The position numbers and the translations under genes were made by a program. DNA of 64,000 nucleotides from positions 96,001 through 160,000 of the forward strand of contig JAPDJH010000002.1 in the NCBI GenBank assembly GCA_029259175.1, written 5' to 3'. Below the pieces are notes generated by a model. That model made no database searches. It was not told the origin of the DNA and saw only the letters and a program-made list of their open reading frames with translations. This document shows, in pieces, positions 45,294 to 50,960 of the stretch (position 1 is its first letter; each line of letters starts with the position of its first letter). Origin of the DNA: Hadesarchaea archaeon. Lineage in GTDB: Archaea; Hadarchaeota; Hadarchaeia; Hadarchaeales; Hadarchaeaceae.

Positions 45294-46295
45294 TGAGTTA
45301 AAAAAATGAAAAATCCCGCCGTGCAAAGTGGTGCCCCGGCACCGACGCGAAGGAGAACTTTCGAGCGATTAGTACCGGTGGGCTGAACGCCTCGCCGAAG
45401 CTCGGCGCTTACACCCCCGGCCTATCAACGGGGTCTTCTGGCCCCAGCTCGCGCCCCGACCACCCTTTCGGGCGATCGGAGCAGGGCGCCTAGTCTAGGG
45501 GGCTGCTTCGGCCTTAGATGCTTTCAGGCCTTATCAGCTGGCGCGTGGCTACCCGGCCTGCCCTGTCGGACAGCCGGTACACCAGAGGCGCCGGCCTCCT
45601 GTTCCTCTCGTACTAGGGAGACCTTCCCCGCAGGCGCCCTACGCCCCCGGAAGATAGCATCCGACCTGTCTCGCGACGGTCTAAACCCATCTCACGTTCC
45701 CCTTTAACGGGCGAACAACCCTACCCTTGGCCGCTGCTACACGGCCAGGATGGGAAGAGACGACATCGAGGTAGCAAACCGCGGGGTCGATGGGGACTCT
45801 CGCCCGCGACCACTCTGTTATCCCCGGGGTACCTTTTCTGTCATCCGAGGCCCTCACCAATAGGGCACTCGGGTTCGCTAGGCCCGGCTTTCGCCCCTGC
45901 GAGCCTTGGTAGTGAGCTCGCAGTCAGGCCGGCTTATGGCCTTGCCCTCTACGGCGGATTTCTGACCCGCCTGAGCCGACCTTTGGGCTCCCTTGTTACC
46001 TTTTCGAGGGACTGCCGCCCCAGCGAAACTGCCCACCTGCCGCTGTCCCCACTCCCGAGGAGCGGGTTAGAAACACAGCACCGGATGGGCGGTGTTACAT
46101 TGGCGCCTCCACCGGACCCGGAGGCCCGGCTTCGACGGCTCCCGCCTACGCTCTGCACCCGAGGCCGTGTTCCAACGACAGGCTGCAGTGAAGGTCCACG
46201 GGGTCTTCGCTTCCCTCCGGGGGTCCCCGGCATGTTCTGCCGGCCAGTGGGTTCACCGGGTTCCGGGCTGGGACAGTGGGGGGCTCGTTGATCCC

Positions 46296-46327
<32 letters not shown>

Positions 46328-46332
46328 TTACG

Positions 46333-47034
46333 CTACCTTAAGCGCCCTTCTCTCGCGCGAGAAGGGTGGACCGTATCATCGTCCTCTCTCGAGGACGCCC
46401 GGCGTACGGTCTCTGAGGATCCTCCCTCAACGAGCCTTCGGAGTTTTTCCTTCTTCTCCGGATGGCGGAAACCCACTACTTCTTGAAATCGTCGCACTCG
46501 CTGGAATCCTTTGACCACGAGCGACCACTGTGGGTGCTTTCCCCACCCGCGCGCTTTTTTCACCCGTATCGAACTCTCGATTCCAGCCGTTCTCAGGATT
46601 CGCTGAACCTCTGTGATAACGGGCTTTGCTATCATGTCTATACCGACATAAGGATATGTGTACACCCGCGCGCCGTGAGTCTGGATGTCGATTCCGCAGT
46701 AGCCCTCCGTGTCGAAGAGTCCTCGCACGATTTCGAGTTCCGATTGCTGGTTTCCCAGAAATGCTTTTGGTATCTTGGCGGTTGTCAGCTTCCGGCCCTT
46801 TGGATAGCCGAGCTTGCGTAGCAATCGGTGAATTTCGCGCTGGTTGGAGGTCACCGCCCAGCAATTGGGTGCCACTCGGCGCAGGTTTGGTTTTATTCCA
46901 AAGATTTGCTCCACCAGTTTTCCACACCGTTCCACGAACTCCCGGTTTCGATCTCTGCAGAACACGGTGTAGGAGTTCCCGTACACGCCGCCGTCACCGA
47001 GCATCACTCCGATCAGATAGGCCAGCGATCCCAT
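46333..47034 (-). CDS. Two-motif LAGLIDADG homing endonuclease (intron-encoded)
   Basis: LAYLIGVMLGDGG and IVRGLFDTEG motifs, VGFRHPEK; reads through the ribozyme 3' core and stops in the 3' exon. Confidence 0.93.
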   Translation of the reverse strand: MGSLAYLIGVMLGDGGVYGNSYTVFCRDRNREFVERCGKLVEQIFGIKPNLRRVAPNCWAVTSNQREIHRLLRKLGYPKGRKLTTAKIPKAFLGNQQSELEIVRGLFDTEGYCGIDIQTHGARVYTYPYVGIDMIAKPVITEVQRILRTAGIESSIRVKKARGWGKHPQWSLVVKGFQRVRRFQEVVGFRHPEKKEKLRRLVEGGSSETVRRASSREDDDTVHPSRAREGRLR

Positions 47035-47204
47035 TGTCTCTCTTTAAGAGGGACTTTGTTACTATTTATGGATTTCTCTGGCTCTCGGGAGTTTCCTGCG
47101 GGTCGACCTCATCGAGAACGGACCTTGTTACCTCCAACACGGAGGTAGTCCGTTCCCTATACGTCTTCCCCGCATACAGCCGGGTTTAACGACCCCCTTC
47201 GTCG
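46343..47204 (-). mobile_element. Group I intron (862 nt) in 23S rRNA at the E. coli L1923-equivalent site
   Basis: 5' exon ends in U with P1 GACCCU/GGGGUC (U.G pair); terminal G; P3 CCCGGC/GCCGGG, P4 UGCGGG/CCCGCA, P7 GACCGUA/UACGGUC, R-like UCAGAGACCGUA, S-like GAUGAUACGGUCC, P8 and P9 hairpins. Confidence 0.92.
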
Positions 47205-49358
47205 AGGGTCAGAGTTACCCCCGCCCCTTGGCGGCGCTTCGGCCGGCTGAACCCGGCTTTCACGTACCGCCGGTGGGCAGGATTCAGCTCCCGTACTCAC
47301 CCTTTCGGGCTCGCGGGAACCTACGTTTTTATTAAACAGTCGGCCCCCCCTTGTCACTGCGACCTGCCTCTCGCGAGGCAGGCACCCCTTCTACCGAGGC
47401 TACGGGGCCAACTTGCCGAGTTCCCTAGCCCGGTGTATCCCGACACGCCTTAGGCTTCTCACCCAGGGGCACCTGTGTCGGTTCTAGGTACGGTCACCTG
47501 GGATCCCATTTCCCAGCTCCCTTTTCACGGGCCCTAGGGCTCAGCCGAACCCGCCTTTCGGCAGGCCATTCCCGCCTTCGTCCGGTTCTCTCCGTTACGG
47601 AACTCCCCGGACTTGAGCGGTTAGATGGGGCGACGACCCCACTCGGCCTACCCCGAGGCGTCGGGAGCTAGGCCTTGCGTTGCCGCAGGTACCCAGGTGG
47701 CTCCGGAATATTAACCGGATTCCCTTTTGGGTGCCTCTGGTTGAGGGCACCCTTAGGACCGGCTAACCCTAGGCTGACGACCATTGCCTAGGAACCCGGG
47801 CCCCTTCGGCGGCCGGGATTCTCACCCGGCTCTGCTGTTACTACCGCCAGGATTTTCATTCCGACGCGGTCCACCAGACCTCACGGCCTGGCTTCTCCCC
47901 ACGCCGGACGCCCCCCTACCGGATCGGCCTACTATACTTCGGCCGCCCCGGGGTCTCGGTGGCCGGCTTAGCCCCGAGTATCTTCGGGGCCCCCTCCCTC
48001 GGCGGGTCCGCTGTTACGCGTTGTTTAAAGGATGGCTGCTTCTAAGCCTACCTCCCCGCTGTCTGAGGGAGAGGACGCCCTTTCCGGTAACACTTAGCCG
48101 GCACTTGGGGACCTTAACCCCGGTCTGGGTTTTTCCCCTCTCGGAGCGGGAGCTTACCCCCCGCATCCCGTCTCCGGCGGTCTACGGTGCTGGCGGCTTC
48201 GGAGTTCGACAGGCGAGGCGAGGGTTTCCCCCCGTCACTCGCCAATCGGTGCTCTACACCGCCAGCGACCTCGCGCCGGGCCTGACTGCGGCCAGCTTCG
48301 GGGGGAACCAGCTATCACCGGGCTTGATGGGTCTTTCGCCACTAGCCCGGGGTCATCCGACCGGATTGTACACCAAGACCGGTTCGGCCCTCCACCGAGC
48401 GTACGCTCGGCTTCGGCCTACCCCGGACTAGATCGCCCGGTTTCGGGTCGCCATGCCGTGACTCCGGGCGCTCTTCACACCCGGCCCCTCGCCCTTTCGG
48501 GCTGCGGGCATCTCGCTTTCGCTCCGGCTCCGGGGATCCAACCCCCTTAGCCTCGCCACGGCAAGGCACTCCCTGGCCCGTGATTCCAGACGGACGGCAC
48601 GACCCCGATTGGCCTCCCTCGTACTACCGCCTCGCGGCGGGTTCCTTCGGGAGGTCTCATCTCTTTCGAGCCGTGCCCAACTGTCCCCACCTGGTTTCAG
48701 GCTCTTTTCACCCCCCTTCCGGGGTGCTTTTCAGCTTTCCCTCGCGGTACTGTGTTCGCTATCGGTCTCGGGACGTATTTAGGGTTGGAAGTTGATGCCT
48801 CCCAGCTTCGGACGGCATTTCTAAGCCGCCCTACTCAGGATACCTCTCCTCGTAGCCTGCCCAGTTACGCCTACGGGGCTTTCACCCTCTACGGCGCGGC
48901 GTTCCAGCCGACTTCGGCTTCCCGGGCGAGGCATTGGGAGAGGTCCTACAACCCCACATCCGCACTCGGTTTCCCGAGCGCGTTCGGTTTGCCCTGTGCC
49001 CCTTTCACTCGCCGTTACTCAGGGCATCGCGATTGCTTTCTTTTCCTCCCGGTACTCCGATGTTTCGTTTCCCGGGGTTCCCGCTCGCTGCCGCGAGCGC
49101 CGGGGTATTGCCCCGGCAGGAGGTCCCATTCGGCGATCCCGGGATCAAAGGCTGCATGCGCCTACCCCGGGCGTTTCGCCGCTTGCCGCGACCTTCCTCG
49201 GCGCCCGAGCCGAGCCATCCCCCAGGTGGGTTCCGGTGTTCTCCCACGAGCCGGCACCGGGAACACTGCCTTTGCACGGCGGTCATTTCGCAAATGAGCG
49301 CGATCCGCCTTCAGTACACGAGCTTTCGGGCTCGCGCACCTCATCCCAAGTGGATATG

Positions 49359-49431
49359 TGGACCCGGCGGGACTCGAACCCGCGACCTCCGGCTTGCAAA
49401 GCCGGCGCTCTACCAGCTGAGCTACAGGCCC
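49359..49431 (-). tRNA. tRNA-Ala (TGC) in the 16S-23S spacer
   Basis: GGGCCTGTAGCTCAGCTGGTAGAGCGCCGGCTTTGCAAGCCGGAGGTCGCGGGTTCGAGTCCCGCCGGGTCCA. Confidence 0.97.

Positions 49432-49465: not shown

Positions 49466-50960
<1,495 letters not shown>

Follow-up and report, generated by a model that had tools for sequence, protein, structure and literature searches.

A predicted IB4-like group I intron with a LAGLIDADG reading frame in helix 69 of the 23S rRNA gene of a Hadarchaeales archaeon

The window analyzed here is a stretch of 64,000 nucleotides from Hadesarchaea archaeon (contig JAPDJH010000002.1 of GenBank assembly GCA_029259175.1, positions 96,001 to 160,000 of the forward strand). The source genome belongs to the Hadarchaeales and comprises 1.31 Mb in 23 contigs with 90.9% completeness. 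Its only rRNA operon lies in the window on the minus strand, and the 23S rRNA gene of this operon is interrupted by an insert that is itself present as a single copy (Table 1). In the alignment with the archaeal LSU model, 867 nt stand between ...UAACUCUGACCCUC and GUAGCG where the model has 5, so that the insert is 862 nt long. Because the same C stands at both junctions, the boundary could be shifted by one base; the group I rule, by which the exon closes with U and the intron with G, sets the boundaries exactly at 46343-47204. A preliminary description of this DNA had put an intron at these positions and claimed that its removal restores helix 69, which agrees with the model alignment, where GACCCU^CUUAAGGUAGC is regained upon removal.

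The insertion site was numbered by way of a bacterial homologue, an intron of Anaerolineales (L092). The canonical length of the E. coli 23S rRNA is 2904 nt. The archaeal 3' exon gave no match to the E. coli 23S gene but the exon of the bacterial homologue did, and its intron falls between the bases that match 1922 and 1923 of the annotated 2903-nt E. coli gene; since this gene is 1 nt below the canonical length, the site is L1923 within one base. The target of I-CeuI is named the 'n.1923 LSU target site' in PMC3315327, and the preliminary identification of the site with that of the I-CeuI intron thus stands within the same one base.

Table 1. Positions in the window of the rRNA operon, the proposed intron, its predicted ribozyme elements and its reading frame; percentages and counts refer to the alignment of 12 homologues.
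Feature	Position	Strand	Basis and remarks
rRNA operon		-	single copy in genome; 16S 49466-50960; tRNA-Ala(TGC) 49358-49431; 23S 45350-49246
Host 23S rRNA gene	45350..49246	-	3897 nt including the intron; LSU_rRNA_archaea 2686.6 bits; model of 2987 positions
Group I intron (proposed)	46343..47204	-	862 nt, 23S helix 69 (3' strand), L1923; LSU model alignment and U.G/terminal G rule
P1 5' strand	47205..47211	-	UGACCCU, last 7 nt of 5' exon, ends in U of the U.G pair; recovered by MFE fold
P1 3' strand, internal guide sequence	47190..47196	-	GGGGUCG; covariation, MFE fold
P10 guide	47197..47199	-	AAG, pairs with first 3 nt of 3' exon (46340-46342); 97.2% of cells paired, 12 sequences
P3 5' strand	47179..47184	-	CCCGGC; partner 46398-46403 lies beyond the ORF
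P3 3' strand	46398..46403	-	GCCGGG; covariation
P4-P5-P5a-P5b domain	47097..47174	-	covariation and MFE fold
P4	47169-47174/47097-47102	-	100% paired
P5	47163-47165/47105-47107	-	100% paired; 3/3 pairs covary
P5a	47148-47157/47114-47123	-	
P5b	47141-47147/47129-47135	-	
P6 and P6a 5' strands	47080..47096	-	P6 47087-47096, P6a 47080-47084; partners 46417-46426 and 46432-46436
P7 5' strand	46405..46413	-	G, bulged A, then GACCGUA; motif CAGAGACC invariant
P7 3' strand	46368..46375	-	UACGGUCC; preceded by J8/7 GAUGA
P8 hairpin, GAGA loop	46380..46397	-	inner 5 pairs 100% paired, 3 doubly changed; MFE fold
P9 hairpin	46345..46366	-	86.7% paired, 7/8 pairs doubly changed; MFE fold
Terminal G (omega-G)	46343..46343	-	last intron base; invariant 12/12, exon C next
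LAGLIDADG ORF, 233 aa, double-motif	46333..47034	-	in P6 loop; ORF translation, Pfam

The ribozyme fold was examined in an alignment of 12 distinct introns (identical copies removed) with 10 nt of exon on each side, made with MAFFT without structural fitting and comprising 925 columns with a mean column identity of 68%; five DPANN loci (L018-L022) and the 719-nt insert of one relative (G034) were left out of it. P1, in which the end of the 5' exon pairs with the internal guide sequence, forms all seven pairs in 12/12 sequences, with the U.G pair at the splice site in every one of them and two pairs doubly changed; an exon base and its guide base change together, being G-C in 4 sequences and A-U in 8. 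P10 is weak evidence when taken alone, because it is short and nearly invariant, and P2 is absent from the model of the window intron. P3, which spans about 780 nt, is 100% paired in 12/12 sequences with three of its six pairs doubly changed, and P6 is paired in 94.8% of cells with four of eight pairs doubly changed (P6a is weaker, with 68.3%). A guanosine-binding G-C pair in P7 beside a bulged nucleotide is a feature of solved group I ribozymes. The P7 of this family consists of a G-C pair, a bulged A, a second G-C pair and six further pairs, the 8 pairs being 100% paired in 12/12, and the G, the bulged A and the following G-C pair are invariant in all 12 sequences; a double change from G-C to A-U, hence compensated, occurs in the window copy only. 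P4 and P7 hardly vary among the 12 homologues, and the long-range pairs of P3 and P6, which close over the ORF, are the most telling structural evidence. All the elements that the preliminary description had called readable (the U.G pair of P1, the terminal G, P3, P4, P7, P8 and P9) are present and are now backed by covariation among the 12 homologues.

Over the whole model, standard pairs fill 93.1% of the 858 cells of the 12 homologues compared to 35.3-48.5% after a shift of the 3' partners by 1-3 columns, a difference that is inflated because the window sequence itself served as the template for the structure. Doubly changed pairs number 41 of 78 compared to 7-16 in the slid controls, and the observed covariation score was reached by 0/500 shuffles (such counts are not probabilities because the 12 sequences are related). 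Minimum free energy (MFE) folding of the separate halves recovered P1 and P4-P5b in one (z = -4.02, with an equally good fold in 0/200 shuffles) and P7, P8 and P9 in the other (z = -2.49). The stems contain 68% G-C pairs, within the range of 56-74% seen in the homologues; the suggestion in the preliminary description that GC-rich stems point to a thermostable ribozyme is thereby reduced to a weak hint, and the argument from GC content was dropped, as the stems of the window are not distinctive among their homologues.

The generic group I covariance model of Rfam (RF00028, gathering score 50) gives the window copy 14.4 bits (E = 0.78) over its 3' part only, a shortfall attributable to the ORF, which parts P3-P6 from P7-P9 by about 650 nt. 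The same model gives 23.9 bits (E = 8e-4) to a homologue that also carries an ORF (L010), and 64.3 bits (E = 3.2e-16) to the ORF-less intron of Anaerolineales (L092), where model positions 1-253 are matched from the P1 of the exon on. It also detected none of the 39 archaeal introns of an earlier survey, in which the IB4 and IA3 models did detect them (PMC6125680).

The low RF00028 score of the window copy would also fit a classical archaeal intron of the bulge-helix-bulge (BHB) type with a LAGLIDADG gene, which the tRNA splicing endonuclease cuts and a ligase joins, as in the 23S introns of Thermoproteota. Such a reading would agree with the BHB motifs in the tRNA introns of this host, and with the LAGLIDADG_3 gene, a type characteristic of introns and inteins in archaea, the best solved relative of the window ORF being an archaeal intron endonuclease (PDB 2dch, E = 0.0016). 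In the BHB motif a 4-bp helix is flanked by 3-nt bulges that contain the splice sites, a geometry validated here only by tRNA controls. The scan accordingly looked for a helix, a 3-nt bulge, a 4-bp helix, a 3-nt bulge and a helix, each cut being set behind the second base of a bulge; every offset up to 6 nt from either junction was tried, and in this range a motif was found in 0/12 introns. At the two registers compatible with the product, the central helix has 1/4 or 3/4 pairs and the inner helix is absent, whereas the same scan returns a perfect 4/4/4 motif at offset 0,0 in two of the three intron-bearing tRNAs (tRNA-Asn and tRNA-Ser, the tRNA-Trp being the exception). The organism thus uses BHB splicing for its tRNAs while the rRNA intron offers no such substrate, and BHB splicing would moreover leave the covariation in P1, P3, P4-P6 and P7 unexplained, so that this mode of excision is highly improbable. 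The earlier proposal of a group I rather than a BHB intron is supported by the compensatory changes in the 12 homologues, by the score of L092 above the RF00028 threshold and by the BHB scan, self-splicing itself being deduced from the fold. Both tRNA genes with perfect motifs are located outside the window, tRNA-Asn at G000:C1:32373-32505 with an intron of 57 nt and tRNA-Ser at G000:C2:111232-111335 with one of 16 nt. Two tRNA-Arg calls of ARAGORN with introns of 682 nt and 291 nt do not resemble tRNAs and were discarded as false positives.

The reading frame inside the intron gives a hit to Pfam LAGLIDADG_3 (PF14528) with E = 3.2e-16 and 59.8 bits (cut-off 22.5) in two stretches, and two motifs, LAYLIGVMLGDGG and VRGLFDTEGY, are recognizable in the translation. 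Among solved structures, 2dch is followed by intein endonucleases, and I-DmoI is marginal (E = 0.53). The frame reads through P6', P7, P3', P8, P7' and P9 and ends at a TAG stop codon located 10 nt into the 3' exon. It extends past the start of J6/7-P7 in 12/12 homologues, and in five of them, the window included, the only stop is this same TAG. The conserved C-terminal tail of the protein is nothing but translated ribozyme core, and translation and folding would compete because the ORF overlaps the catalytic core. The endonuclease genes are not all of one kind: in the homologue L010 the same ribozyme has an ORF of the LAGLIDADG_1 family, compared to LAGLIDADG_3 in Calditenuis, and therefore endonuclease genes invaded the P6 loop more than once.

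Some LAGLIDADG proteins of organelles act as maturases. A group I fold unable to splice autonomously, needing its own LAGLIDADG protein as a maturase, a host factor or high temperature, would suit the entanglement of protein and RNA functions in 12/12 homologues, where the ORF runs through P6', P7, P3', P8 and P7', and also the absence of P2 and the short P9 region compared to the bacterial L092. On the other hand, all helices and joining segments of the core are intact and agree with the consensus of the family, and the sole change in P7 is compensated; dependent splicing is therefore regarded as rather unlikely.

Contigs across the junctions were gathered from four runs of one sample, two of DNA (X4 and X6) and two of RNA (X7 and X8); the runs containing this stretch are labelled as hydrothermal vent and marine sediment metagenomes. 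In the DNA runs, both junctions are covered by a contig of 1042 nt (X4) and by one of 996 nt (X6), each with 2 mismatches; these contigs may derive from the source sample of the window. An exact skip of 862 nt is bridged by two RNA contigs in X7 and four in X8. The same skip is present in one 56-nt DNA contig of X6 (with a shorter side of 22 nt and at a depth of 58.3 compared to 3.5 for the organism) and absent from DNA run X4. The skip contigs are not creditable to splicing because of this short DNA contig and of the intron-less rRNA genes of other organisms that could yield the same skip; loose ends at 46342 belong to intron-less helix 69 sequences of other archaea in the same sample. The exact 360-nt exon contig has a depth of 203.9 (X7) and 44.1 (X8) compared to 5.28 and 2.8-2.9 for the intron contigs, and of 5.26 compared to 7.3 in DNA run X4; contig depths being coarse, this contrast between exon and intron in RNA is a weak hint of splicing.

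The ambiguity of these RNA contigs gives some room to an insert that is retained, excised without ligation (leaving a fragmented 23S rRNA) or, as an assembly artefact, absent from the cell. However, the two DNA contigs cover both junctions, 8 related genomes have homologous inserts at this very base, removal of the insert exactly restores helix 69, which is essential, and the RNA depth contrast leans, if weakly, in the same direction; an unspliced or artefactual insert is thus scarcely credible. Separately from these contigs, one RNA contig of X7 (730 nt, depth 5.28, window 46404-47103) has a layout of 697 + 3 + 30 nt that resembles a circular assembly path joining two positions internal to the intron. 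Its back-joint has no BHB motif and no repeat, the longest shared word being 5 nt, and it is not the joint that a circularized group I intron would show.

The intron is distributed unevenly among relatives. A DNA search of 60 relatives found it in seven, with 65-70% identity, and a protein-based scan of the species collection gave 12 loci with amino acid identities of 61-64% in Hadesarchaea/Hadarchaeum, 51-56% in Calditenuis and 23-29% in DPANN archaea. This part of the LSU gene is assembled in 27 of the 60 relatives and readable at the site in 25 (the site is doubtful in G046, and no motif was obtained from G024); an L1923 insert is present in eight of the 25 (G001, G007, G025, G034, G037, G041, G042 and G049) and absent from 17, including the genus-mate G003. 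The intron of another genus-mate (L007 of G001) is 66% identical to that of the window, below those of other genera (67-70%), and it is identical to L093 from a Candidatus Hadarchaeales archaeon. The L1923 insert of the family-mate G034 (L039, on G034:C4) is 719 nt long, shorter than the others; it was missed by the DNA search and found through its exon flank. In a family-mate (L050, G015:C10), L1923 is uninterrupted and an insert follows CTTAAGGT, at or near L1931, and starts with a similar P3/J3/4 motif; it is probably a sister intron at a neighbouring site. In G025, a second LSU contig (L010/L051, G025:C80) has exons of Thermoproteota type and a 751-nt L1923 intron with the LAGLIDADG_1 ORF mentioned above. 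This bin may be mixed because it has 7 LSU-like matches.

The catalytic core itself is far more widespread. An exact 27-base signature of P7, P3' and P7', which the window copy matches except for one compensated pair, was found in 51 stretches of the species collection (L053-L103), in 17 archaeal and 34 bacterial records of many phyla. A P3/P4 motif lies upstream of the core in 48/51 of these, of which eight are ORF-less (95-159 nt between P3 and P7) and 40 have an insert (427-762 nt). By site, 19 of the 51 stretches are at L1923 and 17 at L1917, and the other 15 include several apparently near L1931. The intron of Anaerolineales at the same site as that of the window (285 nt and ORF-less) forms a simple P6 hairpin in the place taken by the ORF in the window intron, and shares 20/25 and 24/28 bases with core segments of the window intron at matching offsets; the local score of the 5' segment does not exceed the highest one among 200 shuffles. 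A catalytic core that is nearly identical in 17 archaeal and 34 bacterial species records suggests that this family of elements moves freely between domains.

Two bases of the 5' exon may bear on the history of the window copy. At 47210 and 47212 (minus strand), in the loop of helix 69 and 6 and 8 nt before the splice site, the window has G and C, whereas all other Hadarchaeales copies examined have A and A, whether they carry the intron or not (seven relatives of the order were aligned). These are the only exon differences from G003 between -42 and +74, and the window bases are identical to those of Calditenuis and Nitrososphaerota hosts. Calditenuis is likewise matched by the paired guide base and by one base next to it, so that one of the two loop changes is compensated in the guide. 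As judged from these alignments, the changes could be a co-conversion tract or a parallel change. A more ambitious possibility, advanced here only tentatively, is that of an active and heat-tolerant self-splicing ribozyme that recently homed from a donor with a helix 69 of Thermoproteota type, a co-conversion scar of about 25 nt having rewritten the two loop bases. If so, it would offer a tractable first archaeal group I ribozyme for the bench, with an endonuclease frame whose stop codon exists only in the unspliced precursor.

Taken together, the insert is with high confidence a mobile IB4-like group I intron in helix 69 of the 23S rRNA of the single Hadarchaeales rRNA operon, its catalysis, endonuclease activity and homing being deduced from sequence and fold. 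The IB4 subtype is suggested by the site, since every LSU/1923 intron in PMC6125680 is of this subtype. In the precursor rRNA, the exon sequence UGACCCU would pair with the guide of the intron to form P1 and present the U.G pair at the splice site, and the P3-P9 core would fold while the ORF forms a loop on P6. The 5' splice site would then be attacked by an external guanosine docked at the G-C pair of P7, after which the terminal G would enter the same pocket and P10 would align the 3' exon, so that joining of the exons would restore helix 69. The double-motif LAGLIDADG protein of the P6 loop would cut intron-less sites and in this way drive homing.

The preliminary description was right that archaeal group I introns had already been reported. 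IB4 introns at LSU/1923 are known in five archaeal phyla (IB4.7,.9,.11,.13,.17,.18,.20,.21 and.28; Nawrocki, Jones and Eddy 2018, PMC6125680); the kind of intron, the site and the host domain were thus published in 2018, and concepts are unchanged by the present case. What it adds to the introns catalogued then is a secondary structure backed by covariation, and the extension of the L1923 family to Hadarchaeales. The passages of PMC11291895 consulted contain nothing on introns of Hadarchaeota, and the titles and abstracts found by literature search report no splicing assay of an archaeal group I intron; on the strength of those titles and abstracts, this copy, compact, GC-rich and of hydrothermal origin, is a reasonable candidate for the bench. 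The meganuclease I-MG11, as described in PMC13748971, has a recognition sequence different from the helix 69 sequence and was set aside as irrelevant.

Among known systems, the window intron resembles most directly the archaeal LSU/1923 IB4 introns of PMC6125680 in its site, its host domain, its metagenomic origin and the frequent LAGLIDADG ORFs of that set, and in being missed by the generic Rfam model. Its homologues also occur in Calditenuis/Caldarchaeales, Nitrososphaerota, Aenigmatarchaeota and Micrarchaeota, phyla which that survey lists for L1923. It differs from them by its Hadarchaeales host; the two entries of Hadesarchaea source in that survey (filed under Euryarchaeota, from its reference 34) are not at L1923 but are introns of the IA3 subtype at LSU/2500. 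Compared to Ce.LSU.5/I-CeuI of the Chlamydomonas eugametos chloroplast, as presented in PMC3315327, the n.1923 target is shared, and so is the association of a LAGLIDADG endonuclease with a group I intron; I-CeuI is homodimeric, whereas the product of the window ORF is a single chain of the LAGLIDADG_3 type that contains both motifs. With the archaeal BHB rRNA introns (I-Tsp061I, PDB 2dch; I-DmoI) it shares an archaeal rRNA intron encoding a double-motif LAGLIDADG protein, and it differs by its ribozyme fold and the absence of a BHB motif. Finally, the bacterial helix 69 introns (L092 of Anaerolineales at L1923 and 17 loci at L1917) have the same P7/P3'/P7' signature as the relatives of the window intron, the same P3-P7 layout and any ORF likewise between P3 and P7; they differ by their bacterial hosts, by longer P9 extensions and, in some cases (8 of the 48 signature loci that could be measured), by having no ORF.
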